Source of the DNA: an uncultured Kiritimatiellota bacterium
GTDB lineage: Bacteria; Verrucomicrobiota; Kiritimatiellia; RFP12; UBA1067
Assembly: GCA_934635225.1 (NCBI GenBank)
Contig: CAKTYZ010000003.1
Coordinates: 99,210 to 163,209 of the forward strand
Direction: 5' to 3'
Length of the DNA: 64,000 nt
The translations under genes were made by a program, and so were the position numbers. Shown here piece after piece: positions 21,057-46,877 of this stretch. The notes below the pieces were generated by a model. The model did not search any database and was not told the origin of the DNA. It worked only from the letters and a program-made list of their open reading frames with translations. Position 1 is the first letter of the stretch, and each line of letters begins with the position of its first letter.

Positions 21057-21065
21057 GTCCTCACC

Positions 21066-24065: not shown

Positions 24066-24167
24066 CTAAACCCTGTCTCAGCGAGACAGAATCCTGTCGC
24101 ACAGCAGGCGCACAGCGCAAGCGCACGCAGGGCCATCAGGCGGCCCTCAGCGGCCTCAGCTAAAGGC

Positions 24168-24178
24168 GGGGGGGGGGG
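24168..24178. repeat. G11 homopolymer tract preceded by AGCTAAA
   Basis: 11 consecutive G counted on the plus strand (C11 on the coding minus strand), about 230 nt upstream of the LamG-protein gene. The context AGCTAAAGGC-G11-TA parallels the second tract at 56312-56322. Confidence 0.6.
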
Positions 24179-24337
24179 TATTGGAACCGTGCGCGAACAC
24201 GCCTGCGTGGCCTCTGCCGCGCCTCACGAGGGCTCTCCGCCCCATGTTCTCGAACGCCCTCCTCACCATTACGGCTGGCATGATACCAAATTTCGCTTCT
24301 CCACGCAACTCCCTCATGTGGGCGAAGCAGGACCGCG

Positions 24338-26731: not shown

Positions 26732-26739
26732 TTCGCCCC

Positions 26740-26790
26740 GTAGTATAGCATCCTCGCCGCGCCAAGGTCCACTACTCAAATGAGTAGTGC
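26740..26790 (-). promoter_or_regulatory. conserved 30-bp palindrome-containing motif plus TATACTAC -10 box (copy 2 of 3) upstream of the GH116 gene
   Basis: On the minus strand: GCACTACTCATTTGAGTAGTGGACCTTGGC, 13 nt, TATACTAC, 8 nt, ATG(26731). The 30-mer is identical at 35972-36001 and 42472-42501. Confidence 0.55.
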
Positions 26791-28151
26791 GTCGTCTGCG
26801 CGGCAGTTGGTGCTTGGACTACTGACCCGACAGTTCGCGCGTCGGAGACCGTGTCCATCGTCTTTGACAACGAACACAGCAAACTCATCCAATCCGGGAT
26901 GTAGTCACCCGCTCCTTCGATTCTAATCACATTCTCCACCTTGCCAGAAATCTCCGGGAGAGAAGACAGCGTGCCGACGATGATGACCTGCTCGGCGTCC
27001 AGCCTCAGATCCATTCGCTTCGGCGAAAGCCAGATCGTCTTTTGCCGTCCCCTTCGTCCGGCATCGTCCGCCTCTCCACAGACAACAACGACCTCCGCCT
27101 CGTCTAGGATTTGCCGTGCGTCTTGCACAATCACAAATGAAGCCGTCGGGAAACCTGTCAAGAACTCGCGTATTTCTCGCGGATACATTTCACCGCCAAG
27201 AACTTTTGAATCCGGCACAAGCCAGAACAATGGGTTCGTTCGCCCAACTTGGATGCCGTAATTTCGCTTCCTGATCAGCGGCGAACCGTCTTCGCCCTGC
27301 AATACAAGTGCCGCACTCGCCACACATCCAAGAAATCCCGTCAGGCCAATTCCCCAAAACAGTGCAAGTCTCAAAAAACTCCACCGCAGAGAAACAAGCA
27401 CACAAACAAGCGTCATTAAAGGAATTACCCACAAACACCAACTTTCACAGACCGAACTAAACAGAGCCGCCACAAAAAGTGCAACCCATTCCGCCCAGCA
27501 CAGCCAAGCTCCCTGCCGACGTCCGACAATAAAACCAAATGGCAGTACAACACTCCACCCCAACAGCCAGACAACGCCTCCGACAATGCCCGTTTCGACA
27601 ATCCACGTCAAGTGGCTGTTAACCAGAGTCCGATAGCGTTCCTTGCGATCCAAAGGCTGATACCACTGCATATAAGCCTCGCCTGAGTTCCCGATCCCCC
27701 AGCCGAACGGTGCGTCCAACATCATACGAGGTGCTGTCTGCCAAAGTTCAAGACGATTGCCGACAGAGCGATCTTCACGCAAGAACTCAGGTGCCAATCG
27801 TCCGACAACCCCCATCTGAATGGACAGCAGGCAGAACCCCACCACAACCGTCAAGAGGCTCGCCTTGACAAGCGTTCTCATGCTTTTCATGCGACGCAAA
27901 ACCACAAGTGCCAATGGAACAGAGGCAACTGCCAGTGCAACAATTCCACCTCGTGAGAACGTGTGCAGAAGAATGTACAGAGAACCCACAGCAAGCGCAG
28001 CTCCAAGAATACGGGCAAATCGACGAGCGGAACATGCCAAAGCCAATCCGATCAGAACCAGTTCGACAGCCAACACAGCCAGCTTGTTCGGATTGTCGAA
28101 CCCGAACTGCCAACGCACAATGCCATTGTAAAAGAAAGAGGCCAACAGCAT
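26772..28151 (-). CDS. O-antigen ligase / Wzy_C-family polytopic membrane protein
   Basis: 459 aa with multiple TM helices. Periplasmic-loop motif FGWGIGNSGEAYMQWYQ...RTLVNSHLTWIVETGIVGG matches the Wzy_C / WaaL signature (GxGxGN ... HNsyL..ETG). The last 6 codons run into the 30-bp motif. Confidence 0.55.
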   Translation of the reverse strand: MLLASFFYNGIVRWQFGFDNPNKLAVLAVELVLIGLALACSARRFARILGAALAVGSLYILLHTFSRGGIVALAVASVPLALVVLRRMKSMRTLVKASLLTVVVGFCLLSIQMGVVGRLAPEFLREDRSVGNRLELWQTAPRMMLDAPFGWGIGNSGEAYMQWYQPLDRKERYRTLVNSHLTWIVETGIVGGVVWLLGWSVVLPFGFIVGRRQGAWLCWAEWVALFVAALFSSVCESWCLWVIPLMTLVCVLVSLRWSFLRLALFWGIGLTGFLGCVASAALVLQGEDGSPLIRKRNYGIQVGRTNPLFWLVPDSKVLGGEMYPREIREFLTGFPTASFVIVQDARQILDEAEVVVVCGEADDAGRRGRQKTIWLSPKRMDLRLDAEQVIIVGTLSSLPEISGKVENVIRIEGAGDYIPDWMSLLCSLSKTMDTVSDARTVGSVVQAPTAAQTTHYSFE

Positions 28152-28157
28152 ATGCGA

Positions 28158-29861
28158 TTACTCGGCCTTCCACAATTCCGCTATCGGGCGGCTGGGCAGC
28201 ATCACGCGATAGGCATCGGGAATCTCATCGCCTTGCGCACGTGCGACACAGCGCAGATTCACAACATCACCAACCAGCGGAGCCGAATCAAATAACGTGC
28301 GCCAATTGACCGCTGCCGAACGCCGCGTTCTGTCTAGCGCCAACTGAAACACGGCCCGTCCCAACCGTTCTGCCGCGCCACACCCCGAATGGCCAAGCCC
28401 CGGATAGGCTCGATAGAGAATCGGGTATTCCTTATCTTTAGCCGCCTTGAAGAACGCAAGGGAGCGTTCGTAACCACATTCATTCTCACCCGTCGTGAGG
28501 CACCAGAGGATAGATGCGCCTCCGCTCGTCGGCTCATCGAAACTGCTTGGAATGTGAATGTGAACGGCCAAAAACCGCTCAGGCTTGCGCAAGGCCAGAC
28601 GCTGTGCATACTGCGCGGCGCCCGAATACCCCCAAAGCAAAAACCGCACATCAGGAATTCTTTCTTCCCGGACAAGACCATCTACACACTTTGACCACGC
28701 TTCAGAAACCTGATCAAACGCACGATCTGCCGTGCGCGCCTCTTGTCGCGTGAGATCCGTCCAGTTCTTGCGCGGATTCCACAGATGCCGCGCGGAGCCC
28801 CAGGCGACGACTGCAAGCTTGTTGCTCTCGGCAAAGGCGACCATGCGCCCGACCTCAGAGGCAATATTCCCCGTGACAATCTTCGCAGGGATGTCGTCCG
28901 GACTGTTCGCAAGCAGGCTCAGGCAAAGCACGCCTCGCGGGATCTCGTTTCTTCGTGTGCGCAGAAAGACTGTCAGGACAGGCTGAGCCGTCGGCTTTGC
29001 CCTCATAGTCCGACGGAGAATTTCAATCTTGTCGCGCCTCGTCAAGCTTCGCCAACGCAGCAACAACTCTTCCGACGGAAGCCAAAACGAATTGACGTCC
29101 TCCGCTTTTGGTAGACGATTCCCTCGTGTGCCCGTGATGGCATTCGCCCAAACGCCCCCTTCTGCACGGCGACGTCCTTGCAGTTTTAAGATCTCAAGAA
29201 AATAGGCTCGCACAAAATCTTCTAAAACCGCACTACGACTGTGACCAAGCCCCGGAACATCCACCCATGTCCACCGTCGAGCGGCTGCGCGCCCATCATG
29301 AAAGTGCGACAGGCAAGTACCATAACGAAAATCTTCCGTTCCGCAGGCTACAATGCCCGGCGGCCTTTCGCCCCCAATCTGCGACAGACCCTGCCACCAA
29401 CCAGCGGAAGCTGCGCACCACGCCGTGACACGTGAAGGGAACTGTTCAGCGAAACTTGCGGCAAAATGCGCGCCGCCGGAAAACCCGTAAACAAACAGCG
29501 GCAACCGTCCCAATCCGACGGAATCAAGAAACGTCAACAATTTCAGGCCGGATCCTGACCGCGCATCGTAGTAGCCATGTCCCTGTTTCAAATCCGCAAC
29601 AGGGGAACGGAAGGTGACGGCAACCAGTGCTATCGCGTTTGACTGCGCGAACGAAACCCACGCCTTTTCTTTGAGATACACCGAGGCATCGCCATTTGCG
29701 CCCGCAAGCACCACCATGACCGCGCGACAATTCTTCACCTCGCAGACAGGATGGATCAGTGCCTCGAAATGCACTTCTTGCGGCTGATCCTCCGCACGGA
29801 TCGTCACACAGAAGATTGCCGCAAACGCGGACACGAGCAACATGAAAGACGCAGGCTTCAT
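28158..29861 (-). CDS. secreted tandem alpha/beta-hydrolase (two esterase domains)
   Basis: 567 aa with a signal peptide. Two nucleophile elbows, GFSGGA and GYSGAAQ (GxSxG), each followed by a His near the domain end (GLGHS.. twice). Confidence 0.55.
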   Translation of the reverse strand: MKPASFMLLVSAFAAIFCVTIRAEDQPQEVHFEALIHPVCEVKNCRAVMVVLAGANGDASVYLKEKAWVSFAQSNAIALVAVTFRSPVADLKQGHGYYDARSGSGLKLLTFLDSVGLGRLPLFVYGFSGGAHFAASFAEQFPSRVTAWCAASAGWWQGLSQIGGERPPGIVACGTEDFRYGTCLSHFHDGRAAARRWTWVDVPGLGHSRSAVLEDFVRAYFLEILKLQGRRRAEGGVWANAITGTRGNRLPKAEDVNSFWLPSEELLLRWRSLTRRDKIEILRRTMRAKPTAQPVLTVFLRTRRNEIPRGVLCLSLLANSPDDIPAKIVTGNIASEVGRMVAFAESNKLAVVAWGSARHLWNPRKNWTDLTRQEARTADRAFDQVSEAWSKCVDGLVREERIPDVRFLLWGYSGAAQYAQRLALRKPERFLAVHIHIPSSFDEPTSGGASILWCLTTGENECGYERSLAFFKAAKDKEYPILYRAYPGLGHSGCGAAERLGRAVFQLALDRTRRSAAVNWRTLFDSAPLVGDVVNLRCVARAQGDEIPDAYRVMLPSRPIAELWKAE

Positions 29862-32170
29862 TTTCTCAGGACAAGATCCGGTGCATAGATGATGTTATCC
29901 TCGCTTTTCGGAAGTTCAGGCTGAACCTCTCTGGTCACAAGTTCCCGCGTCCGCCTATCCAGCAAGTTCCGCTTGCTTCGCAAAAGCGCAATCACCTCCC
30001 TGACCGGTTTGGCGTTCCGCTCGGAGATCAACTTGACTTCAGTCCGCGTCCCATCCGTTGTCTCAGACGAAAACGTGTCGGCTCCTTCATACAGGCCACC
30101 TGAACGCATCTCGCCGAAATCGCCACGCGAGAAATAGGACATGAGCGAATGAACCCTGACCGGCGGAAGGTGTTCAAACCGATACCGCCCCGCACTGTCG
30201 GTTTTCGTCCACCGTTCAGGATACGTCACAAGTTCAAGTCCTGGCAAGAAAGTCCCCTTGATCCGAACGCCGCCCTGCGGACGTCCACGCTCATCGACAA
30301 CTCGCCCCGAAACAGTGACCATCATGGACGCGGGGAACACCTCAACGGCAAGATGCACGTCATTCGATCCCTTTGTAAAACGTCCGTCAGGCAGAATCCG
30401 AAAACGCAAGCCATCAAGACGCTCCATGAGCAGCACGTTCTGCTGATCGACTCTCCAGTCTCCCGGTTCAAGATCCACTCCACGCTCCTTGATGCAATCG
30501 ATTTCCAGATGATGTGCCTGTCCACCAGATCCAACGACATCAATCCCATACTTCTCTGTTGGCGGAGGACACATTCGTTCGTAAAACCGCGCCAACGCCA
30601 CAGACATCTTTTCGGGCGTATCCGCAACTTTCAATTCCGCCAAATCAAACGCCGTCACGTCGGGATGCACAACGAACCCATAGAAACTCGTATTTCGAGC
30701 CGCCTCCCTGGTCACTTCCTCCTGAGTCTTAATCTGCGGCTCAGGCCGTTTGACTCCTTTCTTCACATCTTCATGCCATTTCACGAACTCTTCCGCGTTT
30801 GGGACAAAGCGATTGACAATCTTGCCATTTCGTACGCTGGCAACCTGTTTTCCTGTTGACGTATACAGGTAGTCGCAATCGCTCTTCTCGTCTCCGCCGC
30901 TCCGAGTCCGCAACAGTCTTCCATTCTTGACGTCAAACCAGAACTCGACAGAAAGACCTGTTTTTGGCATGATTTTGCAATAGGTCAAGCGACCTGTTTC
31001 CATGTATCGGCTCTCGGTTGTCGTGCCGGATTTCCGATCCGTCTCCAGCGTCATGGACAACGCGCCCTTTTCGTCATAGGCGTATTCAGTCCGACTGCCA
31101 TATCCCTGCGAATATGTCGTTTCCAGCCATCGCTTCTTGCCGCGAAGATTCTTGCCCGATGTGAACACGCGCCAGACACGCCGACATTCTTTCCGTTCGC
31201 TGACTCTCATGCCCGTTTCGAGATTCGCGTACTCCTCCTCCGTCTCGCCATCTGGTCGCTTGCGGAGAATGTGCGCATTTCGCCGCTTCGCATCGACTTT
31301 CGTGATGACATAAGTCCAGTCGTTCAGCGAAAGGATCTGCCGCGTCCCTAAGTCATACGCATAGTTCCGCTCTCCATCCGAGAAAGTCGCCCGCCCTTTC
31401 TTTGCCAAGCCATGGACAATCCGATACGTCCGTCCGCCAGACTTCAACTGGACAACGGACATCCGCTCTTTCTGAAGCCCCCACTGTCCATTCGCATTCA
31501 GACCTCCGACACGCACGGGTGCCAAAAGGACTTCAGCCCTTCCGCCATCCGTAAACGCAATCGTCCGCATTTGGCCGCTCTCCCTGCCGCCCGTTTCCAT
31601 CCGGCACAAGACCTTGCCGCCACAGACCATCTGCTCGAAAGTCCCGTCCGCCGAATAGCGGAACTCGACCGACAGCCCTCGCGTGTTCATTCTCACGAGC
31701 CGACCGTTCCTGAAAACGAGGTCGGGGAGCTTCTTCTCCAATCGCCAATAGAAGCGAGTCTCGCCGCCGTTCGTCACGCAACCGGAACCACGGCGTCCGC
31801 GCCACAGGTTCGGGCGTTCCTCCTTCCTGAGCCAGAACTTCCGCACAATTCCGTCCGGGCTGTGCATCACAAGACAGTCCCGACTGACAGGATAGATTCG
31901 CGACTCAAACCAGGGGATGCGCCAACCGTAGCCCAGAGTCGTCTTGCCACTCGGCTCTTCGGACGACCAGTAGGCATAGACCGTGCATTTCTTCGGCCCG
32001 AACGACAACGTACCCAACGGATATTCGGCGATTGCGTGACCAATGGCATCCGTCCCCTCAATTGCACTGTCCGCCAACGCCGCTCCACTGTGGAGCGGCA
32101 TCCTCATCCGCCCACCCTGCGACACACAGCCGACGCAAGCAAAACCAACGGCTAAGACAATGCGTTTCAT
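29858..32170 (-). CDS. lipoprotein with C-terminal CarboxypepD_reg-like (transthyretin-fold) domain and conserved ..NIIYAPDLVLRK tail (paralog 1)
   Basis: 770 aa. Lipobox LAVGFACVGC. Near the C-terminus VTVSGRVVDERGRPQGGVRIKG..YRF is a CarboxypepD_reg-like beta-sandwich. The tail is shared with 32177-33094 and 33559-34482. Confidence 0.4.
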   Translation of the reverse strand: MKRIVLAVGFACVGCVSQGGRMRMPLHSGAALADSAIEGTDAIGHAIAEYPLGTLSFGPKKCTVYAYWSSEEPSGKTTLGYGWRIPWFESRIYPVSRDCLVMHSPDGIVRKFWLRKEERPNLWRGRRGSGCVTNGGETRFYWRLEKKLPDLVFRNGRLVRMNTRGLSVEFRYSADGTFEQMVCGGKVLCRMETGGRESGQMRTIAFTDGGRAEVLLAPVRVGGLNANGQWGLQKERMSVVQLKSGGRTYRIVHGLAKKGRATFSDGERNYAYDLGTRQILSLNDWTYVITKVDAKRRNAHILRKRPDGETEEEYANLETGMRVSERKECRRVWRVFTSGKNLRGKKRWLETTYSQGYGSRTEYAYDEKGALSMTLETDRKSGTTTESRYMETGRLTYCKIMPKTGLSVEFWFDVKNGRLLRTRSGGDEKSDCDYLYTSTGKQVASVRNGKIVNRFVPNAEEFVKWHEDVKKGVKRPEPQIKTQEEVTREAARNTSFYGFVVHPDVTAFDLAELKVADTPEKMSVALARFYERMCPPPTEKYGIDVVGSGGQAHHLEIDCIKERGVDLEPGDWRVDQQNVLLMERLDGLRFRILPDGRFTKGSNDVHLAVEVFPASMMVTVSGRVVDERGRPQGGVRIKGTFLPGLELVTYPERWTKTDSAGRYRFEHLPPVRVHSLMSYFSRGDFGEMRSGGLYEGADTFSSETTDGTRTEVKLISERNAKPVREVIALLRSKRNLLDRRTRELVTREVQPELPKSEDNIIYAPDLVLRK

Positions 32171-32176
32171 CTATAT

Positions 32177-33094
32177 TTACGGCAAGGCGATATCTGGCAC
32201 ATAGATAACGTTGTTCGTGCTCACGGGAAATCCTCTAATTGGCGCTTTCAGAGGATAAGGCTTTCCTTTCTTTCTCTCATAGGCAGACACGATTCTCTCT
32301 GCAGATGTCCTCAGGGACGCTGTAAGTGTCAAGACTTCAACTTCTTTCACCTGTAGGTCTCGCTCAATCCCCTCTCGAATCCCTATACGTACGGAAAGAG
32401 GGGAATCCTCAAAACACGTTCGTCTCAACATATTCGTATTCGCCATAAAGACCGCCGCATCATTCAACGACGGCAATCTTAACCCCTCACAACTCCAATA
32501 GCCATCTTGTCTTGACACTGTGAACATTGCGGAGACTTTTTTCAGATTCTCATTCTCTGAATATGGAAATTGCATAATTTCAATTTGTCTCCCCGCAACG
32601 GGATTCCCATTCTTGTCTACGCAGCGTCCCTGTAGTGTCAGATTTTCTCGGTACAATTCCACGTAACAACTTTTTTCTAAAGGCATCTTTGATGCCATCC
32701 CAAAGTAGCGAATCTCCTTATCTTTTATAATCTCCACAAAGTCTGCAACAACCCAATACATTGAAGAGGATACGTCTGGCATTACGATGGAGAACCATCC
32801 TTTCTGATCGGAACTTCCCCTCGCAACAACTTTGCCATCGGGAAACGACAGAACTTGCACATTGGCGGAAACCACACGACGACGAAAGCCATTTCTCTTT
32901 GAGAATCGTTTTTGAGCCTCATTCTCAATAACAACTCGCAAGGACTCCTCGGCCGATTGGTCGTATGCGGCTGCAATCTCATTTGCCGTCAACTCATCGA
33001 CTCGCCATACTTCACCTTCTATCTTTGTTGCGCGACAGATGTAGACACCACAAAAAAGCAACATCATCGTAACACAAAATTTTTTAAAAAGCAT
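32177..33094 (-). CDS. lipoprotein, CarboxypepD_reg-like domain, conserved ..FPVSTNNVIYVPDIALP tail (paralog 2)
   Basis: 305 aa. Signal/lipobox MLFKKFCVTMMLLFCGVYIC. LQGRCVDKNGNPVAGRQIEI motif. Lower-GC DNA. Confidence 0.4.
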   Translation of the reverse strand: MLFKKFCVTMMLLFCGVYICRATKIEGEVWRVDELTANEIAAAYDQSAEESLRVVIENEAQKRFSKRNGFRRRVVSANVQVLSFPDGKVVARGSSDQKGWFSIVMPDVSSSMYWVVADFVEIIKDKEIRYFGMASKMPLEKSCYVELYRENLTLQGRCVDKNGNPVAGRQIEIMQFPYSENENLKKVSAMFTVSRQDGYWSCEGLRLPSLNDAAVFMANTNMLRRTCFEDSPLSVRIGIREGIERDLQVKEVEVLTLTASLRTSAERIVSAYERKKGKPYPLKAPIRGFPVSTNNVIYVPDIALP

Positions 33095-33111
33095 ATCACA
33101 TACTTCCTAAT

Positions 33112-33543
33112 TTATTCAACAGTATCACCTTGTAAACAAGCATCAGATGCTTCGCAGACATCTTCTGTTCCGCACGAATCATTCTCACGACACAGATCTT
33201 CTTCTTCACATCTATCTTGAAGACAGGGCTCATCACCAGCAGGCATTGACAGAAGGCAAGAATCTGCATTTGCACGACCACCAGGACAATCATCGGAATA
33301 CTTCAGTTCTGGTAAACAAACGTCTTCCGTGTCTCGACCACCTGGGCAGGTGTCGGATTCTTCACTCTCTGAGGTTGCTGGTTGACAGAAGTCCTGGCTG
33401 TGTCCACCTCCAGGACAGAGAGGTGGCAGAAATGGAGAATCTGTCGCCAGCACTGTGTCCGTGAAGGTAAAGTGTGCGAATCCACCAGCCATCAAAATTT
33501 GAAAAAGTCGATGCGCGAACTGACGACAAGAGATATTCTGCAT
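33112..33543 (-). CDS. Cys/Asp-rich repeat peptide (candidate RiPP precursor or secreted metal-binding peptide)
   Basis: 143 aa (start uncertain). Three D-x-C-P-G-G repeats (LCPGGGHSQDFC, DTCPGGRDTEDVC, DDCPGGRANADSC), then five hexads DRCEEE DLCREN DSCGTE DVCEAS DACLQG D, i.e. (DxCxxx)5, which is CxxxD spacing. Fifteen nt downstream of a gene and 17 nt upstream of the next one in the same operon as a radical-SAM/SPASM gene. Confidence 0.45.
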   Translation of the reverse strand: MQNISCRQFAHRLFQILMAGGFAHFTFTDTVLATDSPFLPPLCPGGGHSQDFCQPATSESEESDTCPGGRDTEDVCLPELKYSDDCPGGRANADSCLLSMPAGDEPCLQDRCEEEDLCRENDSCGTEDVCEASDACLQGDTVE

Positions 33544-33558
33544 TGTAAGTATTCCTTT

Positions 33559-34482
33559 TTATTGCAGAACCAGATCCGGCACATAGATGACATTGTTCGT
33601 GCTGACTGGAAAATTCGTCATCGGATTCAAACGTTTCATTTTCTTCCCCGATTTACGTTCCGTGGCGGCAATGGTCTTTTCTACCGCCCTGTGGTTCTCA
33701 TCCGTGACATTGGGGACAACCCGTTCAGCATCATATGAACCAAAAGGTTTGCGCCGCGCATATATCCCCAATTGCAAAGGATAGTGACTGACCTGCCAAT
33801 TGTCCACGATATTCGTATAACAGATGTAGGACATCAAAGGGATGATCGGAGGAGAGGCAAGCCCGTCTACACGCCATCTTCCAAGCGTATCCGTCACCGC
33901 CAGTTGTGTTGGACAAAGACGGCATTCCTCCTCCGTTTCTCCAGACGTAATCGGATGCACATAAACAAAAACGCCCTGTGCCGGAGTACCGTCTTTCTGC
34001 ACACACCTTCCCATTGCTGAAGCATATGAACGCATCATGGTTATGTTCGCTTCATAATATGCCGCATTACGCCTCTTATATGTCCGGGACACCCCAACAT
34101 ACAAGACAGGTCTACCAAACTCCTCACGGACAACCTTACTATAGGCTCGCCATAACGAATCTTTCCCAGGCATTACAACAGAATAATTTCCATCCTGATC
34201 GACCTTTCCGCGACCAACAACCTTGAAGTCGGGAAGCGTCTGTATCTCAACCGTCGCACCAACGGGAATGGTCATATATTTGATGCCTTGAGCATTTTGT
34301 CGCTCCATGATTTGCCGTGCGGCAAGTTCAGGGATACGTGCACCCGTTGTCGCATATTCCTCAGCGACTTCCGCAATGCTCGGCGTCGCCTCAAGTCGCA
34401 CCCAGCCCTTGACAACATCTCCACTTGCATTTACAGCAACTAATAAAGATGCAACCGTTCCCATCAATTTCCGTGCTTTCAT
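33559..34482 (-). CDS. secreted protein, CarboxypepD_reg-like domain, conserved ..FPVSTNNVIYVPDLVLQ tail (paralog 3)
   Basis: 308 aa. The ORF track fuses this with the upstream radical-SAM reading frame. The real start MKARKLMGTVASLLVAVNA (ATG 34482) lies 13 nt after the radical-SAM stop. AMGRCVQKDGTPAQG motif. Confidence 0.45.
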   Translation of the reverse strand: MKARKLMGTVASLLVAVNASGDVVKGWVRLEATPSIAEVAEEYATTGARIPELAARQIMERQNAQGIKYMTIPVGATVEIQTLPDFKVVGRGKVDQDGNYSVVMPGKDSLWRAYSKVVREEFGRPVLYVGVSRTYKRRNAAYYEANITMMRSYASAMGRCVQKDGTPAQGVFVYVHPITSGETEEECRLCPTQLAVTDTLGRWRVDGLASPPIIPLMSYICYTNIVDNWQVSHYPLQLGIYARRKPFGSYDAERVVPNVTDENHRAVEKTIAATERKSGKKMKRLNPMTNFPVSTNNVIYVPDLVLQ

Positions 34483-34495
34483 GATTCTATTCCTT

Positions 34496-35610
34496 TCATT
34501 GTTTTGCGTACAAGGACGCAAACCATGCCTCCTGCATAATCCAACGTTTTGAATCCTCACAATTCCGCTCAGACAGGGCAAATGTTCCGTCCGGACGAGC
34601 GACCTCCCACGGGCATGGGCCTTTGCAAAACGGGTAGGCCCAGCATCCGAAGCAATGTCCTTTGACAAGCTCGCGATACTTACGCCAAAACGTCTGACAC
34701 TTTTCAACGTCAGGGCCATCCAAGACAGATCCAACAACCCAGTTCTCCATGCCGACAAAACGGTGACATGGATAGGGCGTTCCGTTCGCCCCGACCGTCG
34801 TCGTCCCGCGACAGGCGCCGCATCGAAAGGGTGAAATCGGCTCTGCCTCCAGTTTCTTCGCGCCATCAGCCTTTTGATTCCTGCAACGGCCAGATCAAAC
34901 GACCCCGTTCCCGTGCGCGTCGGGCACTGCCCGTCATGGCGTTCCTTCGGCCCGTCCAGACTGACCATCAGACCAAAGTTGTATCTCTTGATGACAGAGA
35001 TCACGTCATCGTCAATGAGCGTTCCATTCGTCGTCATCGAATAGAACACCTTCTTGCCATGAAGCTTCGCCAACCGCTGACTGTATGCCACCGCGAACAG
35101 CAAGACCTTCTTGTTCATCAGCGGCTCACCACCAAAGAACGTGATCCCAACCTCCTTTGAACGTCCGCTGACGGCGAACAGCCAGTTGATGGCCGCACGG
35201 GCAATCGTCTCGCTCATTCGGCCTTGATTTGGCACTTCATCGCGACACGTCCCGCAATAGCAATACCGACACGCGAGATTGCAGACCTCTGATAGGGCAA
35301 GCTCTAATTTTGTCCACGGAGCCTCATAGCGAAGTCGCAACAGTCGATCAAATTCCGCATCCGTCGGAATCGGCTGTTCACACGGCTCAAAAAAGCCCGA
35401 CTCCTCCAAGGCTGATATTTCACGCCTCAACCCTTCGTTCTCAGGCGACGCCTGTTCACCTGCCGCTCGCCGTTCCAAATGGGACTTTGCTTCTTGCGAG
35501 ATTTTCAACGGGCGTTTCAGCCCCCTATGCGCGACGAACGAATCGCCCTGATATGAAAAGACATGATAGGGAACTTCCTCAAGAATCCGTTCCATAAATT
35601 CAACCTCCAT
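34496..35610 (-). pseudogene. radical SAM / SPASM-domain enzyme (peptide-maturase-like) with an apparent frameshift near 34850-34895 and a shortened core; possibly a pseudogene or assembly indel
   Basis: Frame A carries ..LELALSEVCNLACRYCYCG (CX3CX2C), GITFFGGEPLM and SLDGPKERHDGQCPTRTGTGSFDLAVAGIKRLMA (an anSME/SPASM-subfamily block). It then becomes Arg-rich nonsense. Frame +2 opens at 34894 and reads KKLEAEPISPFRCGACRG..(x14)..C ... KGHCFGCWAYPFCKGPC ... C, i.e. SPASM CX2CX5CX3C clusters, ending at 34496. There are about 110 aa ahead of the CX3CX2C, which could be an RRE-type N-domain. The core-to-SPASM spacing looks about 50-90 aa shorter than in anSME/PqqE-type enzymes. Confidence 0.55.
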
Positions 35611-35971
35611 ATGCTCGCGCCAACACTCCAACTGAAGACGAGAACCACACAGATATCGCCACATATGCAATAACATGGAAAAGTATACCTTATTTTCATT
35701 TGGCTTGTCAATCATGCGACCATGACAAATTAGAAACCACGACAGTAGATGCAAGTCTCCGCAGGTGTGGCATCGCGCGGAGGGGCGGGAAGTGGCGCGA
35801 GTGAGGAGCGAGGGTTTGCAGACGTCGAAGGGGTCTCGCCCGCAGCCCGTGGTCTCGCCGAGGCATGGCAGGCTGAAGCCGGACGGTTGTCTTCAGAAAG
35901 AAGCGCAACCCCGAACGATGAGACCGAGCGAACAGCTTCCCGCTCCGACGCGCGCACTGTCAAGCCGACAT

Positions 35972-36038
35972 GCCAAGGTCCACTACTCAAATGAGTAGTG
36001 CCGCGCACGACATCAACAACGCCACAGTTTGGTATACT
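35972..36038 (+). promoter_or_regulatory. conserved 30-bp motif (copy 1 of 3) plus TATACTAC -10 box upstream of the sensor-kinase gene (near-leaderless start)
   Basis: Plus strand: GCCAAGGTCCACTACTCAAATGAGTAGTGC (35972-36001), 31 nt, TATACT (36033-36038), 7 nt, ATG 36046. The motif orientation is inverted relative to the two minus-strand copies. The same motif could also serve the divergent radical-SAM operon. Confidence 0.5.
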
Positions 36039-37694: not shown

Positions 37695-40600
37695 TCACCG
37701 ACCGTCCGAGGCGTTGCGCGACCAGCCGGCTTTCAGGACGTCTAGCAGCGTCTCATTGATCGGGAAATCCGTTCCGTCCCTGCGCATGGCGTGAAGCGCC
37801 ATGGTATTCGGCGCAGTCGTCTCTCGGAAATTCCAGTAGGTCCAACTGAACCCGTATTCCTCAAACAGGCCGATGCGCCAACCCGTGTCCTTCGCCTGCT
37901 GCCGTCCGTCCCCGACCTTCTCGACGGCGAACTCGCCGACTAACAGCGGCACCTTGTGCTTCCGTTGAAAGGCCACCACCGGCTGAAGGGCTTCGCGCAA
38001 GCTTTCCGGCGTGCTGACCGGCGTGCCGAAGACAGCGGCGGCAGCATAAGAGTCGCCCGTCGCGTTTTCCAGTCGCATCCAGCCGCGCAGACGCCAAGAC
38101 ACGGCACGACCCGGCAATTTGATCCGCGGTCCAACCCAACCGTTAAAGGAGCCTGTCCCCGTGACGCGCAACGCACCCGGACGCGCGTGCCCGACCGTCT
38201 GGTCGTAAGCGACGACCGAGACGGGTTCGCGCTCCGCCACGAAGCCTTCGGCATCGGCGTCAAACCCATACTGCGCAACGACTCGCCCACGCTCGTCAAC
38301 CAACTCAATGTCATCGAACCACGCCGTGCCCGCGTTGGCGGACGACCGCAGCAACACGGCAAGTTCAGAATCCAACTCGCCGAACGTCAGGACCCGCTCA
38401 ACCGGCATCCAGCCGCACGTGCCGCGCGCACCCGCGCCTTCTCCCTCGTTGCGCAACCAACCGCCGTTCACCCCGCCACCCTCGTAGAAGTGAAAGGTGT
38501 AAATGAGGTTGCGTTCCGCCAGGACGTTTCCATCCCCCAGGCTCGTGGCGTTGGAGAAACTGTCGCCCGACACGACGATCACCTTGTCCGGATCGACCTC
38601 GCGAATCTCGGCAAGAGCCTTGCGCTGAAGTGTGACAAGCACATCAGGGCTTCCCTGCTGCGTGTCGGGCTCATTCAGCAATTCGTACGCGGCCAACACG
38701 TTCCGCCCCCGATAGCGTGTCGCCAACGCGCGCCAAAGAGACAAGAAACGGGCTTGGCACGCCCGACTGTGCCAAAGCTCGTTCTTGCCGCCGCGCGTGT
38801 GGGCAAAGAGATTCTGCCCGCCCGGCGCAACGTGCAAGTCCAAAATGACGTATTGCCCATATCTCTCAGCCCACGACAAGACCTCGTCGATGTCCCGAAC
38901 CCCTTGCTCCCTTAAGGCTCCCAGCCGATTTGGATCTTCAATTTGCTCGCAGGAAACGGCCAAACGCAAGACATTGGCACCCCACTCCGCCTGTCGTCGC
39001 ATATCGCTCTCCGTGTAGACCGTGCCGTCCGCCTGCCACCAGCCCCAGTTGATTCCCCGCAACACAATCGGACGATTGCCCGCCCAAAGGCGTTCGCCCT
39101 CGACGCGAACCGGCGGCAGGGCCACGACATCCGGTCCCAGATACTGCGTGTGCACGTTGTAGACCTTGACGCGTCCGCAGTTCCGGATCGTGTACAGCGG
39201 CGGCGGATCGGCTGGCGCGTCCGCGTGGAAAAAGACAAACGCCTCACGCAGGATCACGTTGTCGCAGTCCTCAAAGACGAAGAGCGTCTGCGGCTTCGCG
39301 ACATGGCACTTCCCCCAACCGAGATGGACAACGGTGTTCGTCAGGCCTCGGATACGAATGGGCAGCTCCTCGTTCTCCAGACTGTAGGGCGCAAACGTGA
39401 ATGGCACAAGCGCCAGGTCATATTCCTCCGGGTGGTCGCCCAGCATCCACCGATCGCCTTCGCCGATCGGTGGCAACGGCAATCTTTCGCGACTCTTGAT
39501 CGTCGGGCCAATGCCAGGGAACGGCTTCTCAGAGATTTGCGTCTGCTCCGCCGCCGAATAACGTGTCCCCGCCAGCGGCGGCGGATTCCAGTTCGGACGA
39601 AAGGCGTCCGGCACAGGTTTCCTTCGTCGGACGACAATCCATTCCTTTCCGGCGGCGTCCCGTTCAAAGTGCCCGCCGCCCCGCACCACGTTCTCTCGCA
39701 TCAGCTTCTCGCACACACGAAAAAGGTCGTCCAGCCGGTAGTCGCTGTATGAGAACGTGCGGCTGTCGTCAAGAACCGAGACATAGTCGGGCGCAATCGC
39801 CCGTGTGCCGCGCGACGTCAGAAGGACGCCCGCCGCACTGGACGGATTGCAGTCCGAGTCCCAGCCGCACTGCATGGCGACCTTGATTGTCCGCGCGAGG
39901 TCGCCCCCGCCATAGAGGAGACCCATCAGCAGAAAGGCGCCGTTCGGCTTGACGTCAGAGCCCTTCTGGTCGATCCGCCCGCGATGATAGGCGGGATCGT
40001 CGACGTATTTCGCCTCGACCTTCCGCCAGCACGCCCGCCAGTCATCCGGGAGCGCGCGATGCCACGCACGGACATCACGCACCATCTCCGCGTACTGCGA
40101 TTCCGGCGGCACGCACGCGAGTCCGGCATCAATAATCGCGTCAATGTCGCGGGTGAAGAACGCCTCGGCGTACATGCCGCCCATGAACGCCCCGGCCCAA
40201 ACGCCGTCGCCGCTGTTCACAAGCGTGCCGAAGAGCCGCGAGAGCTCGATCGCGCGCTGCGGCAGCCCTGGCGAGATGAGCCCCGCGTAGTCACTCTCGA
40301 TCTGGTAGTCGATGTTGTCCGCGCAGGCGTTGTAGCGCGGATGCCCGCAGTCGGGCGGCGCGATGCCGCGCCGCAGGTTGTCGCGCCCGGCCCAGTTAGC
40401 CGCGCACAGGCCGAACTTCGTGTTGGCGAAGTCCAGCCCGGCCTGACGCGGCGAGACGTCGAAGCCATGCTGTTCCAAGGTCCGAAGGAAGGTCATCTCC
40501 ACGAACAGGTCGTCGTTGTCAAAGCCGCCGTTGATCATCTCAGGCTCCCAGACTGGAACCTTCTCGTCGGGAATCGGCTCGCCCTGGTACCTGAATTCCG

Positions 40601-40760
40601 TTGGCAGCCCCCACTGGACGCCGATCATCTGCCCCAGCCATCCGGCCTTCATCCTGTCGCGCCAGTCTTTCACGGACAGCCGACGCACGTCTGCATCGTC
40701 CGCGCCCGCACAGCAAGCCGAGCCCGCGAGCAGTCCCGCCGCGAGAAACGCGTTCATCAT
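37695..40760 (-). CDS. secreted multidomain protein: ADP-ribosylglycohydrolase (ARH)-like N-domain fused to a GH5 cellulase-family domain and a C-terminal beta-sandwich (CBM-like) region
   Basis: Signal peptide MMNAFLAAGLLAGSAC. The ARH-like blocks GWLGQMIGVQWGLPTEF and C-terminal GGGDLARTIKVAMQCGWDSDCNPSSAAG are degenerate versions of GxAxGDALG and GGDTDT. GH5 carries the acid/base LLNEP and nucleophile region LLVGEFAV. SD AAAGGA before MMNAF (40760). Confidence 0.6.
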   Translation of the reverse strand: MMNAFLAAGLLAGSACCAGADDADVRRLSVKDWRDRMKAGWLGQMIGVQWGLPTEFRYQGEPIPDEKVPVWEPEMINGGFDNDDLFVEMTFLRTLEQHGFDVSPRQAGLDFANTKFGLCAANWAGRDNLRRGIAPPDCGHPRYNACADNIDYQIESDYAGLISPGLPQRAIELSRLFGTLVNSGDGVWAGAFMGGMYAEAFFTRDIDAIIDAGLACVPPESQYAEMVRDVRAWHRALPDDWRACWRKVEAKYVDDPAYHRGRIDQKGSDVKPNGAFLLMGLLYGGGDLARTIKVAMQCGWDSDCNPSSAAGVLLTSRGTRAIAPDYVSVLDDSRTFSYSDYRLDDLFRVCEKLMRENVVRGGGHFERDAAGKEWIVVRRRKPVPDAFRPNWNPPPLAGTRYSAAEQTQISEKPFPGIGPTIKSRERLPLPPIGEGDRWMLGDHPEEYDLALVPFTFAPYSLENEELPIRIRGLTNTVVHLGWGKCHVAKPQTLFVFEDCDNVILREAFVFFHADAPADPPPLYTIRNCGRVKVYNVHTQYLGPDVVALPPVRVEGERLWAGNRPIVLRGINWGWWQADGTVYTESDMRRQAEWGANVLRLAVSCEQIEDPNRLGALREQGVRDIDEVLSWAERYGQYVILDLHVAPGGQNLFAHTRGGKNELWHSRACQARFLSLWRALATRYRGRNVLAAYELLNEPDTQQGSPDVLVTLQRKALAEIREVDPDKVIVVSGDSFSNATSLGDGNVLAERNLIYTFHFYEGGGVNGGWLRNEGEGAGARGTCGWMPVERVLTFGELDSELAVLLRSSANAGTAWFDDIELVDERGRVVAQYGFDADAEGFVAEREPVSVVAYDQTVGHARPGALRVTGTGSFNGWVGPRIKLPGRAVSWRLRGWMRLENATGDSYAAAAVFGTPVSTPESLREALQPVVAFQRKHKVPLLVGEFAVEKVGDGRQQAKDTGWRIGLFEEYGFSWTYWNFRETTAPNTMALHAMRRDGTDFPINETLLDVLKAGWSRNASDGR

Positions 40761-40791
40761 CGTCCTGTGTCCTTTCACTCGCACGCACCCG

Positions 40792-42123
40792 TCACTCGGC
40801 CGCCACGGGACAGACTACGCGAAGCCCGAAGAAGTTCTTCTGCAGTTCGTCCGGCAGCGTCAGGTTGATGCCCCACCGCACGCTCAGGCGGCAGAAGAAC
40901 GCCTTGTTGCACCAGCTACCGCCGCGCACAGCGGCAAATCCGTTGTCCGCAATCGCCGCACCATCCGCATGGGCGAGGTTGTCGTCTACATATCCGCCGA
41001 GGCACCATTCCCAGACGTTGCCGGCCATGTCGTAAAGCCCCCAGTGGTTCGGCGCGTAAGACCCGACGACGGCCGTTCCGTTCTCCGCCGAGCAGTCCTG
41101 TGCCGGCTCCGCACCGTCGATGAAGCCGCCGTTCGCGAGGTAGCGCCCCGGCAAGTTCGCGTCCGGCGCATCGTCCTGACCGGCGACGACGAGAACCGCC
41201 GCGCCGTTCCCCCAGCGCCCGTCGATGTCGCCCGCACGGGCCGCGTATTCCCACTGCGCCTCCGTCGGCAGGTCAAACGCCAGACCCGTGCGCGTCCGCA
41301 GCATGCCGAGATAGGAAGTCCCTGCAGGATCGGCAGGATAGTCGGCGGTCGCATCGTTCCAGTTCCCGGCCGCCTTGCGGATCATGTAGTAACTCACGCG
41401 CTCGACTGGCCGCATCGCGTAGTCCTGCACGTTGTTGAAATACGCACACCTGAAATTGCCGTTGTCGTTGTCCTTTTCTGGGATCTCCCATTGGCGCTGC
41501 GTGATGGGGAAGACGCCGATGTAGTAGCTGTCGGACATCGTCACCTTGTGCGTCTTTTCCGTGTTGCCCCAGTTGGCGCTTCCCATCGTCCACGTGACGT
41601 CCTTGGCCATGATCTTGCGCAGCACGAGGGATGTCGTGCGGTAGTCGGCGTTCGCGAGCAGACCTCCCGGCAGGAAGTCTTCGGACGGATAGTAGCGCTG
41701 CGTCTTCGGCTGCGCACCGCTCGAGATATCGACAACCATGTAATCGGGCGGATTGTCCAGTGCCCACGCCTTGACGACGGCCCGCGCACCGCCGTTCGCT
41801 ACCTTGTGCCCAGGCCAGTCCGCGCTCGGATCCCAACGGATCGTGTGTGCACCGACATCGGACTTCTTCCAGCAGTCGCCCGTGACGCGCTGAATGTGCG
41901 TACCTCCGATGGACGACCAGACGCCGTTCGCGTCGTTCGTCTGGATGTCCAGCGTGATGATGGCTGGCGCGACGGCAAGCTCGTAGTCAACCGTGACCCT
42001 GCGATGGCTATCCTGCCGCATCGCCACGGACACAATTTCAGGGGGTGGCTCAGCCATCGCGCAAGATGTGCCAACCACGCCGACGATGACGCCACACAGG
42101 CAAGCGAACTGACTTCTGTTCAT
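40792..42123 (-). CDS. secreted formylglycine-generating-enzyme (FGE)-sulfatase domain protein (SUMF1/EgtB/PvdO superfamily)
   Basis: Signal peptide. C-terminal hallmark NHWGLYDMAGNVWEW...RGGSW of the FGE-sulfatase fold, and an earlier YRLPTEAEWEYAARAG-like block (LPTEAQWEYAARAG). Confidence 0.75.
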   Translation of the reverse strand: MNRSQFACLCGVIVGVVGTSCAMAEPPPEIVSVAMRQDSHRRVTVDYELAVAPAIITLDIQTNDANGVWSSIGGTHIQRVTGDCWKKSDVGAHTIRWDPSADWPGHKVANGGARAVVKAWALDNPPDYMVVDISSGAQPKTQRYYPSEDFLPGGLLANADYRTTSLVLRKIMAKDVTWTMGSANWGNTEKTHKVTMSDSYYIGVFPITQRQWEIPEKDNDNGNFRCAYFNNVQDYAMRPVERVSYYMIRKAAGNWNDATADYPADPAGTSYLGMLRTRTGLAFDLPTEAQWEYAARAGDIDGRWGNGAAVLVVAGQDDAPDANLPGRYLANGGFIDGAEPAQDCSAENGTAVVGSYAPNHWGLYDMAGNVWEWCLGGYVDDNLAHADGAAIADNGFAAVRGGSWCNKAFFCRLSVRWGINLTLPDELQKNFFGLRVVCPVAAE

Positions 42124-42450: not shown

Positions 42451-42501
42451 ATAGTATAACACGCACGTCGCGCCAAGGTCCACTACTCAAATGAGTAGTG
42501 C
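42451..42501 (-). promoter_or_regulatory. conserved 30-bp motif plus TATACTAT -10 box (copy 3 of 3)
   Basis: Minus strand: GCACTACTCATTTGAGTAGTGGACCTTGGC, 13 nt, TATACTAT, 29-nt leader with AGAGGA SD, ATG(42421). Sits between the clpB 3' end and the small Cys-protein gene. Confidence 0.55.
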
Positions 42502-44876: not shown

Positions 44877-46877
44877 TTATTTCGTGAACTTCATGATGAA
44901 GCCACCGCCCTTCGCCATGTGGAAATCCAGCTTCTCGCCGGCCTTGACGGACTTCGTCTCGCGAACATACCGTTCCGGCTTCACATCGGCATCTGCCGCG
45001 TCACGGAAGATCTCCACCTTCCATTCGCCGTCGCCAAGAAAGCCCGTCTCGACCGTGAAGTCACGCGCCTCGGCGTTCGTCATGCCCGCAGCATACCAGC
45101 TGCCGTCCCTTGTCTGACGCGCACAGGCGACCAGCGTTTCGGGATCGCCCCCAAGGCCAATCGTCTTCGCCCACACGACCGGAACTTTCGCCATGAACGC
45201 AAACGACTCACTATTCTTCTCGTAGTTCGTCGGCGAATCGCTCAACATCTGGAGCGGAGCCTCGTAGAGAGCCATCATCGCCATCTGACGGCAACGCGTG
45301 CCTTCCGAACCTGGGAAGACATACATGTTCGGAGCCCCCGGATCACCCTTCTTCGGATAGCCGCCGACAGGATAATTGATCATCGCGCCCGGCGTATAGT
45401 CCATCGGACCCGCTGTCTGGCGCAAGAAGAACGCCATAACGTCGTTCGACATCATGTCCTCACGATGAAAGAACTTCATTTGCTCCAGCCCGTGTACGCC
45501 TTCATAGTTGAGGACGTTCGGGTATGCGCGGCTCATGCCCGTCGGACGATGCGCACCATGGTAGTCCACCAGCATCTTGTGCTTCGCGCACGCATCCGCG
45601 AACTTCCAGAGAAAGCGTTCGACGTCCGCGTCACCACGGTCCATGAAATCGACCTTGAAGCCCTTAGCACCAAGCTTCGCGAAATGCGCAGCGACCTTCT
45701 CCTCCTCACCGACAATCTGCGCCCAAGCCATCCAGAGGATGATCCCAACGCCCTTTTCGTTGCCGTAGCGAATGATTTCGGGCACATCCACATCCGGATG
45801 GAACTTCCAGATGTTCAGCGTCTCGCTCCAACCCTCGTCAAGGATAACATACTCGACGCCCGTCTTCGCGGCAAAGTCGATGAACCGCCTGTAAGTCTTC
45901 GTGTTGCAACCCTCATTGCCCTGATTGTCGAAACAACTCCACCAATCCCAAGCGACCTTGCCCGGCTTTACCCACGAGAAGTCCACACCCTTCGCGGCCG
46001 GACGCGCCAACGCATTGACGATGTCGGCCTCGCAGAATTTCACAGGCGTGTCAGCCAGTACGAACACGCGCCAAGGGAACGTACGCGTACCAGACGTTTT
46101 CACGAGGAAATCATCATGTTCGGCAACGGCAACCCAACGCCCGCCTTTCTCGACCGACTTAGAGTGATTCCACCCGCCCGCGCGATAAGTGCGCTTCGGA
46201 AAGCCCGCGAACGTCGACGAAAGCGCGCCGTCTTTCTTCTCGAAGTTGAGAATCGGGTAGTCATAGACGTCCGACTCTGTGATTGCGACAGCCTTGCCGC
46301 CAACGCGCGCGGCGAACGGCAGATAGGCAAACCTCTTGCCGAAGTCAAGCGTCGCGAAGTCGCCGGCCTGCGGCAGCGTCTCCTCGCACCCGAAACGGTC
46401 GGTCGTGTTGTACCAGCAACGCGCATCGCCCGCCAACGCGACCGTCGCCTTCTCGCAGTTCACGACAGTCGAACCGTCCTTCGCCGAGTAAAAGCGATAG
46501 GCCACGCCGTCGTTGCGCGCGGCAAGCTCAACGCCCCATGAACCAAAGTCGGCCTTCGCGAACGCGCCCGAAAGATCCAGCGCAGACTTCTTGTAGACTG
46601 GCGACGGCTCAACGCCTTTCGCAATCCAGTTTGAGACTTTCGGAGACTTGCCCTTCGAGGCCTCCGTCACGCACCGGCCGTCCAGCTTCAGGCCGATTTC
46701 GCTCTTCGCGACGATCTCGACGCCATCACGCGAGACAGCATACGCGAGCGGACTTGTCCACAAGCGGATTTCGTTGCGCCCATCTGGCGAAAGAACCGTC
46801 ACGTTGGGCTTGTTGGTGTCAAAAAGGCAGCAACAACCAGCTGCTGCAGCACACAGGACCAATGTTATCTTTTTCAT
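44877..46877 (-). CDS. secreted GH97-family glycoside hydrolase (SusB-like alpha-glucosidase)
   Basis: 666 aa with a lipoprotein-like signal. GH97 N-domain (LSPDGRNEIRLW), catalytic TIM-barrel blocks (YVILDEGW, KGFKVDFMDR) and a C-terminal beta-sandwich. Confidence 0.6.
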   Translation of the reverse strand: MKKITLVLCAAAAGCCCLFDTNKPNVTVLSPDGRNEIRLWTSPLAYAVSRDGVEIVAKSEIGLKLDGRCVTEASKGKSPKVSNWIAKGVEPSPVYKKSALDLSGAFAKADFGSWGVELAARNDGVAYRFYSAKDGSTVVNCEKATVALAGDARCWYNTTDRFGCEETLPQAGDFATLDFGKRFAYLPFAARVGGKAVAITESDVYDYPILNFEKKDGALSSTFAGFPKRTYRAGGWNHSKSVEKGGRWVAVAEHDDFLVKTSGTRTFPWRVFVLADTPVKFCEADIVNALARPAAKGVDFSWVKPGKVAWDWWSCFDNQGNEGCNTKTYRRFIDFAAKTGVEYVILDEGWSETLNIWKFHPDVDVPEIIRYGNEKGVGIILWMAWAQIVGEEEKVAAHFAKLGAKGFKVDFMDRGDADVERFLWKFADACAKHKMLVDYHGAHRPTGMSRAYPNVLNYEGVHGLEQMKFFHREDMMSNDVMAFFLRQTAGPMDYTPGAMINYPVGGYPKKGDPGAPNMYVFPGSEGTRCRQMAMMALYEAPLQMLSDSPTNYEKNSESFAFMAKVPVVWAKTIGLGGDPETLVACARQTRDGSWYAAGMTNAEARDFTVETGFLGDGEWKVEIFRDAADADVKPERYVRETKSVKAGEKLDFHMAKGGGFIMKFTK

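Follow-up and report, generated by a model that had tools for sequence, protein, structure and literature searches.

A secreted fusion of an ADP-ribosylhydrolase-fold domain with a family 5 glycoside hydrolase in Kiritimatiellota, and the large extracellular clade to which it leads

Nearly all that is known of the ADP-ribosylhydrolase (ARH) fold concerns the removal of ADP-ribosylation inside cells, and the ARH enzymes hold the 2''- and 3''-hydroxyls of ribose on two metal ions. Here we describe a secreted protein in which a domain of this fold is joined to a glycoside hydrolase (GH) of family 5. Its gene lies on the reverse strand of a 64,000-nucleotide stretch of DNA (hereafter the window; positions 99,210 to 163,209 of contig CAKTYZ010000003.1, assembly GCA_934635225.1) from an uncultured Kiritimatiellota bacterium. 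The fusion itself is a rare curiosity, and the wider lead is a very large extracellular ARH-fold clade, which behaves like a family of carbohydrate-active enzymes (CAZymes). Genome annotation pipelines currently label the proteins of this clade "ADP-ribosylglycohydrolase family protein," and the domain, which is abundant in rhizoplane Verrucomicrobia, has been interpreted as removing ADP-ribose from proteins (PMC7251102). The fusion instead points to the clade as unrecognised sugar-cleaving enzymes, not protein de-ADP-ribosylases.

The described members of the ARH/DraG family (human ARH1 and ARH3, DraG, Tri1, MJ1187; Pfam family PF03747) are distant from the window domain. In a fold search, the identity to every solved ARH was 10-15%, and searches of the PDB with the ARH-like part, using both the single sequence and a profile hidden Markov model (HMM), reached no solved ARH. 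The classical members are cytoplasmic, whereas the window protein is secreted. Furthermore, the clade of the window domain has its own invariant D-x-Q-I-E-x-D motif, as well as C-terminal beta domains and CAZyme fusion partners, neither of which we have seen reported for the classical ARHs. In ARH3, MgA is bound by T76, D77, D78 and D316 and MgB by D314, D316 and T317 (PMC8141533, Table 2), and E41 is listed as critical (PMC9738213). The Asp of the "GDxxG" motif (D34 in ARH3, D15 in ARH1) is absent from the published ligand list (PMC8141533, Table 2; PMC9738213).

For the GH5 half, the closest characterised relative is the GH5_22 exo-beta-xylosidase from Geobacillus (PDB 9ku5), and we also compared the GH5_37 enzyme CelC (PDB 1cec). 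Unlike these, the window protein has a beta-sandwich of ~145 residues between strands beta6 and beta7 and is fused at its N-terminus to the ARH-like part and a beta-helix domain. It is nearest to GH5_22 by similarity.

Both halves also have secreted standalone relatives. The N-terminal 550 amino acids (aa) are 60-75% identical to six "ADP-ribosylglycohydrolase family proteins" (P0001-P0006), which belong with P0063 to a set from Planctomycetota, Verrucomicrobiota and Kiritimatiellota. These six stop at aa ~540-557, and none of the listed clade examples has a GH5 domain, whereas the window ARH domain and the wider standalone clade share the same invariant motifs. The GH5 half, including its insert, shares 41-61% identity, over the span between the mature N-terminus and the C-terminus, with standalone proteins from Lentisphaeria, Kiritimatiellae and Armatimonadota (P0270-P0315). 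These start with a signal peptide of their own and lack an ARH-like part. By gene content, the setting also recalls the ribose-utilisation (Rus) loci of Bacteroidetes, where PF03747-type genes stand among glycoside hydrolases and nucleoside hydrolases (10.1101/574913); a close paralogue of the ARH-like part in Verrucomicrobia (L010) likewise adjoins an IU_nuc_hydro gene. The Rus loci are polysaccharide utilisation loci based on SusC/D, as opposed to the two-gene unit found here, and their ADP-ribosylglycohydrolases are also uncharacterised biochemically.

Domain layout and candidate active sites

The open reading frame (ORF) at 37695..40784 (reverse strand) is uninterrupted and encodes 1029 aa counted from GTG, the numbering used for residues throughout. 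The ATG at 40760 is the start kept in the orthologues (L006, L007 and L008) and yields 1021 aa; starting at the GTG at 40784 would add eight residues. A previous reading of the window, made from the sequence alone, had ended the gene at exactly this conserved ATG. An exact-sequence look-up returned no database record for the window protein under either start codon. The fused protein consists of a leader and five parts, as follows.

37695..40760, reverse strand: complete coding sequence of the fused protein, 1021 aa from ATG 40760, stop codon TGA at 37695-37697
40701..40760, reverse strand: signal-peptide-like N-terminal segment, aa 9-28 (MMNAFLAAGLLAGSACCAGA), read from the sequence
39585..40679, reverse strand: ARH-fold domain of catalytic type, aa 36-400, candidate active site E63, N90, D91, D92, D309, D311, C312
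39129..39467, reverse strand: beta-helix-like middle domain, right-handed and short, aa ~440-552
38460..39119, reverse strand: GH5 (beta/alpha)8 barrel part 1 (beta1-beta6), aa 556-775, with R607, H651, N704-E705 (acid/base, "LLNEP") and H765/Y767 ("HFYE")
38025..38459, reverse strand: all-beta CBM_4_9-like insert, aa 776-920, between beta6 and alpha6/beta7, with a conserved "AWFDD" motif
37698..38024, reverse strand: GH5 barrel part 2 (alpha6, beta7, beta8), aa 921-1029, with the nucleophile E951 ("GEF") and W981, placed by PDB alignments to CelC and 9ku5, invariant residues and the structure model

The leader was called by eye, and all aligned clade members have a hydrophobic N-terminal leader ahead of a conserved "RRLSV" motif. 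We did not adopt a lipoprotein reading of the leader, as no canonical lipobox precedes C24 or C25.

The sequence-only reading had proposed an ARH/DraG-fold domain and a true GH5 domain in one secreted protein on the strength of four motifs (GWLGQMIGVQWGLPTEF, GGGDLARTIKVAMQCGWDSDCNPSSAAG, LLNEP and GEFAV), all of which are present in the ORF, and the proposal is borne out by Pfam matches and structure models of both folds. PF03747 (ADP_ribosyl_GH), the family whose failure to match the N-terminal domain was to count against the proposal, does match, at aa 48-327 (E 1.5e-26; 94.2 bits, cut-off 26.2; positions 2-281 of the 287 in the profile), and the model of this domain has the all-alpha ARH fold. 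PF00150 matches the GH5 half (E 5.1e-34, 118 bits against a cut-off of 23.5), and the model of aa 544-1029 confirms a (beta/alpha)8 barrel, with a predicted local distance difference test (pLDDT) score of 93.8. The layout nevertheless differs from that reading in two respects. The ARH-like part had been thought to lead straight into the GH5 domain, but a linker and the beta-helix domain of ~110 aa lie between them. The beta-sandwich had been placed as a C-terminal tail, but it lies inside the GH5 barrel, with the GEF nucleophile downstream of the module.

In every alignment, whether to Pfam or to the PDB, the GH5 match falls into two pieces, and 9ku5 has ~23 residues where the window protein has ~150. 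The model shows the insert as an all-beta module between strand beta6 and helix alpha6, with a pLDDT of mostly 94-98 per 10-residue block and 85-89 at two blocks. When scanned alone, the window insert gave no Pfam match at E <= 10, although the database entries of several subfamily homologues that share the insert list PF02018 (CBM_4_9, a carbohydrate-binding module [CBM] family). Conservation of the module extends to ~50 standalone GH5 homologues, and it marks a small GH5 subfamily. R607 (beta2), H651 (beta3), N704-E705 (beta4), H765/Y767 (beta6), E951 (beta7) and W981 (beta8) are invariant in 53 subfamily sequences and in the orthologues. When aligned to CelC and 9ku5, E705 and E951 fall on the NEP and GEF motifs of these enzymes. 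Judged from these positions, the GH5 head has all the canonical catalytic residues and is predicted to be a retaining enzyme. The middle segment, scanned alone, matched nothing significant in Pfam. Its beta-helix domain is specific to the subclade of the window gene, where it also forms the C-terminal domain of the standalone proteins P0001-P0006.

To place the residues of the ARH-like domain, we aligned profiles of the clade with hhalign to the ARH3 sequence, verified against PDB 6d36. Global mode failed, and the usable mapping came from a local, low-mact alignment of a 232-sequence profile (E 6.6e-5 and a probability of 64% over 269 columns). A clade profile pairs D309-S-D311-C312 with ARH3 D314-T-D316-T317; in the 232-sequence alignment, N90-D91-D92 is paired with T76-D77-D78 and G51-Q52-M-I-G55 with G33-D34-C-V-G37, so that the "GDxxG" Asp is replaced by Gln. 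The sequence-only reading had equated GDxxG with G55-V-Q-W-G59, one G-x-x-x-G step away, and had concluded that the metal-binding Asp positions were substituted. However, the "GDxxG" Asp is not a ligand, D91, D92, D309 and D311 pair with ARH3 ligands, and these residues and E63 are invariant or nearly so. E63-F64 lies eight residues past G55, and in ARH1 we take E25-F26 to lie seven residues past G18; from this motif position (T-E-F against W-E25-F26) we infer that E63 may be the catalytic Glu, the counterpart of ARH3 E41 and ARH1 E25.

D91, D92, D309, S310, D311, C312, N313 and P314 show no variation across an alignment of 45 sequences, in which T62 and E63 reach at least 90% conservation. 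The same active-site pattern is repeated in 42 far more diverged multi-domain members, and every orthologue has the same residues as the window protein at the counterparts of the ARH ligands. The ligand set of the ARHs is truly departed from at only two positions, where a Thr or Ser ligand is missing. The position of ARH3 T317 (ARH1 S305) is occupied by C312, which is invariant in alignment A1 and at least 90% conserved in alignment A2, and that of T76 (ARH1 S54) by N90, which is variable within the clade. D159, Q161, E163 and D165, which form the D-x-Q-I-E-x-D motif, are invariants specific to the clade. The "GSYGNGGAMR" loop of ARH3, presumably an ADP-ribose contact, is aligned with D159-x-Q-I-E163-x-D165 and a gap, with near-zero confidence in that part of the alignment.

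Taken at the level of residue conservation, the ARH metal site appears intact and not degenerate. The acidic ligand counterparts are conserved, and a purely glycan-binding role is therefore unlikely and a catalytic domain favoured. Both its fold and its profile match place the N-terminal domain in the ARH/DraG superfamily. We do not file it as an ADP-ribosyl-acceptor hydrolase, because a Thr/Ser ligand is replaced by Cys and an ADP pocket is no more than putative.

The secreted clade and its possible activity

The N-terminal half of the window protein retrieves more than 4,800 clusters, a lower bound since the candidate list was saturated. Most of these proteins are ~560 aa long with an N-terminal leader and come, where the organism is given, from Planctomycetia, Phycisphaerae, Kiritimatiellia, Verrucomicrobiota and Armatimonadota. 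They mostly carry a different C-terminal beta-sandwich, the beta-helix version being confined to the small subclade of the window gene. Among 42 long clade members, Pfam identified fusions to PKD (21), LamG (5), esterase (3), GH43 (2) and F5/8 type C (2) domains, and to GH106, GH92, GH84, GH26, CBM96 and a GDSL lipase (one each); another member (P0093) is fused to GH127. The modularity of the clade is CAZyme-like. Thus described, it has thousands of members in the main polysaccharide-degrading phyla, which are secreted, seem to have kept the metal site, and are shuffled with GH and CBM modules in the manner of CAZyme domains.

Some members carry two ARH-like domains in tandem, namely P0008 and P0009 (757-760 aa) and P0122 (2390 aa), the last with three LamG domains as well as PKD, FIVAR and CarboxypepD_reg.

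Within the beta-helix subclade, the neighbouring genes encode GH16, a PIG-L-like deacetylase, GH29, GH92 and GH106 (all three in L012), and a secreted IU_nuc_hydro protein together with GH92 (L010). Context evidence is good for this subclade and weak for the clade as a whole.

In L010, from Verrucomicrobia UBA1629, the gene for the secreted PF01156 protein (9647-10741, E 1e-17) starts 30 nt after a standalone gene for the ARH-like and beta-helix domains, and GH92 follows ~800 bp beyond it.

We somewhat favour the hypothesis that the window protein is a secreted, two-headed glycan-degrading enzyme of gut and rumen Kiritimatiellota, in which the ARH head acts as a metal-dependent glycosidase and the two heads cooperate on one polymer. 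The ARH head (aa 36-400) would have a site of the binuclear-metal type, formed by E63, D91, D92, D309, D311 and C312, and would hold the hydroxyls of a terminal sugar on the metals while the glycosidic bond of that sugar is hydrolysed. It would likely act on an extracellular glycan, at a side-chain or capping residue, and not on ADP-ribose attached to protein. The GH5 head (aa 556-1029) would cleave a beta-linked backbone or oligosaccharide, and the CBM_4_9-like insert, which sits in a loop close to the face with the active site, probably shapes the binding of the substrate or extends it. The short beta-helix domain would join the two heads, and the fusion would keep both activities together on one polymer.

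Several observations weigh against this hypothesis. The domain-wide alignment to ARH3 is only moderately confident, and the pairing of E63 with E41 and E25 was taken from motif position and not from the hhalign register. An invariant Cys replaces a Thr/Ser ligand. The identity of the GH5 half to 9ku5, 32%, is too low to assign a GH5 specificity. Four typical clade members of ~560 aa on long contigs have housekeeping or AP_endonuc_2/GFO_IDH_MocA neighbours and no CAZyme clusters. In the searchable literature we found only incidental mentions of clade members and none with a demonstrated activity. Nor did we find a paper that characterises a secreted ARH-like glycan enzyme or the ARH-GH5 architecture, in agreement with the sequence-only reading, which had not recognised the architecture as characterised.

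A broader proposal, which we put forward tentatively, is that the secreted ARH-fold clade is an unrecognised family of metal-dependent glycoside hydrolases in which the binuclear-metal chemistry of the ARHs is re-used on a sugar of environmental or host glycans, possibly a furanoside or another residue bearing a cis-diol. In that case, the ARH-GH5 protein would be a naturally bifunctional enzyme and would offer a hint as to the polymer. This proposal draws on the thousands of clusters in Planctomycetota, Verrucomicrobiota, Kiritimatiellota, Lentisphaerota and Armatimonadota, on the invariant D-S-D-C-N-P motif and on the repeated GH and CBM fusions. If the proteins are glycosidases, they would make up a new CAZy family whose two-metal mechanism is unusual, and they would account for some of the glycan-degrading capacity still unassigned in the Planctomycetes-Verrucomicrobia-Chlamydiae (PVC) bacteria of the gut, the rumen, soil and the sea. 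The ARH-GH5 fusion offers a practical starting point, as the choice of candidate substrates is narrowed both by the GH5 partner, which is close to GH5_22 and its beta-linked substrates, and by the GH29, GH92, GH106 and GH16 genes found as neighbours.

We also considered the possibility that the ARH head is a true ribosylhydrolase of the ADP-ribose type that works outside the cytoplasm and scavenges ribose, by freeing ribose or ADP-ribose from NAD-derived compounds, nucleotide-sugar-like conjugates or ADP-ribosylated material. The fusion to GH5 would then merely co-localise two nutrient-harvesting activities. The score well above the PF03747 cut-off and the retention of the residues that bind the ribose-coordinating metals are in line with this explanation, as are the secreted IU_nuc_hydro gene within 30 nt of a close paralogue in L010 and the combination of ADP-ribosylglycohydrolases, nucleoside hydrolases and many GH families in the ribose-utilisation loci of Bacteroidetes (10.1101/574913). 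However, the 10-15% identity to every solved ARH and the failure of HMM searches to reach any ARH in the PDB speak against it. In the segment aligned at low confidence to the "GSYGNGGAMR" loop of ARH3, the clade has a different invariant motif and a gap. Moreover, the fusion partners are overwhelmingly directed at polysaccharides (GH43, GH92, GH106, GH26, GH127, GH5 and CBMs). On balance we regard a ribosylhydrolase as unlikely.

The main suggestion of the sequence-only reading had been an accessory module, either glycan-binding or hydrolysing ribose or another sugar. Its hydrolytic half agrees with the two-headed glycosidase that we favour, whereas the glycan-binding half sits poorly with the putative acidic site. 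Some ARH-fold proteins are purely structural, and the domain could in principle be an inert accessory that binds glycans for GH5 or supports it structurally. Against this, the five acidic active-site counterparts are invariant or nearly so over hundreds of diverged sequences, and so are the polar residues N130, R134, R138, H148, D159, Q161, E163, D165, D193 and N281, the kind of pattern that catalytic pockets typically show. The domain must also do something by itself, since the majority of the clade are standalone proteins that contain no further catalytic domain. The dN/dS ratio of the ARH part in the fused gene (0.12-0.18) is as low as that of the GH5 barrel. We therefore consider an inert role quite improbable.

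Reality and origin of the fusion

The ARH-GH5 architecture is rare. A whole-protein search covered 1.84 billion cluster representatives, and among the best 150 of its 7,770 hits only one protein (P0121, 99% identical) covers both halves; the others match aa ~30-420 or aa ~555-1025, never both. A scan of species-representative genomes recovered the full-length fusion in three genomes. These are a human-gut Kiritimatiellaeota metagenome-assembled genome (MAG) with 99% identity, evidently of the same species as the window (L008), another human-gut Kiritimatiellaeota MAG with 85% identity (L006) and the rumen MAG RUG632 with 80% identity (L007). The same genomes also hold standalone paralogues with the ARH-like and beta-helix domains (L009, L011 and L012).

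In the three independently assembled genomes, the reading frames of the orthologues are uninterrupted and span 1015-1021 aa, and all catalytic residues are identical. The pairwise dN/dS ratios are 0.12-0.18 for the ARH part, 0.11-0.25 for the middle domain, 0.09-0.20 for the barrel and 0.12-0.28 for the insert, at a dS of 0.46-1.6. With the full-length frame conserved and dN/dS low in all modules, the fusion is therefore real and selected throughout. It is at least as old as the split of the three species, and all of its parts are under purifying selection. That the fusion is an artefact, produced by mis-assembly or by a sequencing error that deleted a stop codon between adjacent genes, might be suspected from the separate existence of its closest ARH-like (P0001-P0006) and GH5 relatives (P0270-P0272) and from an apparent frameshift in the database entry for the rumen orthologue (P0007), but is effectively refuted by selection and by the frames of the orthologues (99%, 85% and 80% identical) and of P0121, along with a clean junction and standalone relatives in which the partner gene is not next door.

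Up to aa ~380, the entry P0007 (469 aa, ENA) shares 84% identity with the window protein, after which it continues into a tail rich in Arg, Gly and Pro; it looks like the rumen orthologue with a frameshifted gene call or an error of assembly.

The closest ARH-like relatives (P0001-P0006) are 60-75% identical over the ARH-like and beta-helix domains, have 536-557 aa and end where the GH5 domain begins, and two of them were confirmed as standalone genes. The standalone homologues of the GH5 half with its insert have ~490-520 aa. In these, the signal peptide is followed by "LPPLRVEG," whereas in the window protein "...YLGPDVVA" leads directly into "LPPVRVEG," and no remnant of a signal peptide or of an intergenic spacer was seen at the junction. 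The fusion therefore replaced exactly the signal peptide of the GH5 protein. From these sequence comparisons, the gene appears to have arisen by in-frame fusion of two otherwise standalone families.

An origin from adjacent genes was rejected, as the standalone relatives that we examined do not have the partner gene as a neighbour. The upstream neighbour of the standalone GH5 gene P0270 resembles a RecQ C-terminus, the downstream neighbours of P0002 and P0005 encode a PIG-L-like deacetylase and GH16, respectively, and no GH5 gene was called beside P0004, which is on a short contig.

A second, independent fusion of the ARH-like and beta-helix module is found in the rumen MAG RUG632 (L009, 2695-7137), where a paralogue is in frame with ~950 upstream residues that lack a Pfam hit, with neither a stop codon nor a signal peptide between the two parts. 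In L004, the homologue of this ~950-aa part is a separate gene that ends 45 nt upstream of the ARH-like gene.

Genes around the fusion in the window

Directly upstream of the fused gene, in the window as well as in L006, L007 and L008, lies a gene for a secreted protein with a domain of the FGE-sulfatase fold (FGE, formylglycine-generating enzyme). Its stop codon precedes the GTG of the fused gene by 7 nt and the ATG by 31 nt. The N-terminal ~170 aa of the partner protein are without annotation. We rejected the reading of this partner as a true FGE, which would have implied a sulfated substrate. Its best solved relatives are the PorK/GldK lipoproteins and TvpA (E ~1e-9), ahead of the FGEs (E 4e-8 to 2e-5). 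Moreover, it contains GGSWCNKAFFC, with a C-x5-C spacing, whereas the Cys pair of canonical FGEs has a C-x4-C spacing. Downstream, and convergent with the fused gene, are genes for a HisKA_3 kinase and a LuxR-type response regulator. Further off are genes for GH97, GH116, a LamG protein and a weakly GH5-like protein. The CAZyme genes are scattered in the window and do not form one locus. The partner and these genes are located as follows.

40792..42123, reverse strand: upstream partner gene, secreted 443-aa protein, FGE-sulfatase-fold domain at aa 179-437 (PF03781, E 1.5e-28)
18261-21056: 931-aa protein with a sub-threshold GH5 hit
21066-23939: 957-aa LamG_3 protein
24338-26779: GH116
44877-46877: GH97

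Two stretches of the window stand out by their G+C content. Positions 14000-26000 form a block of high G+C (0.66-0.69) with large, secreted-looking ORFs, which are those of the 931-aa protein, the LamG_3 protein and GH116 listed above. Positions 26790-35972 (~9.2 kb) have a G+C content of 0.47-0.56, against 0.62-0.66 in the surroundings, and are missing in L008, a genome of the same species in which the two flanks adjoin each other. The genes in this stretch encode a Wzy_C/O-antigen-ligase-like protein, a 731-aa radical-SAM protein and products of 567, 770 and 305 aa. A sequence of ~30 bp recurs at its junctions and matches L008 6259-6289, which is collinear with roughly positions 42470-42500 of the window. 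The stretch looks like a strain-variable island.

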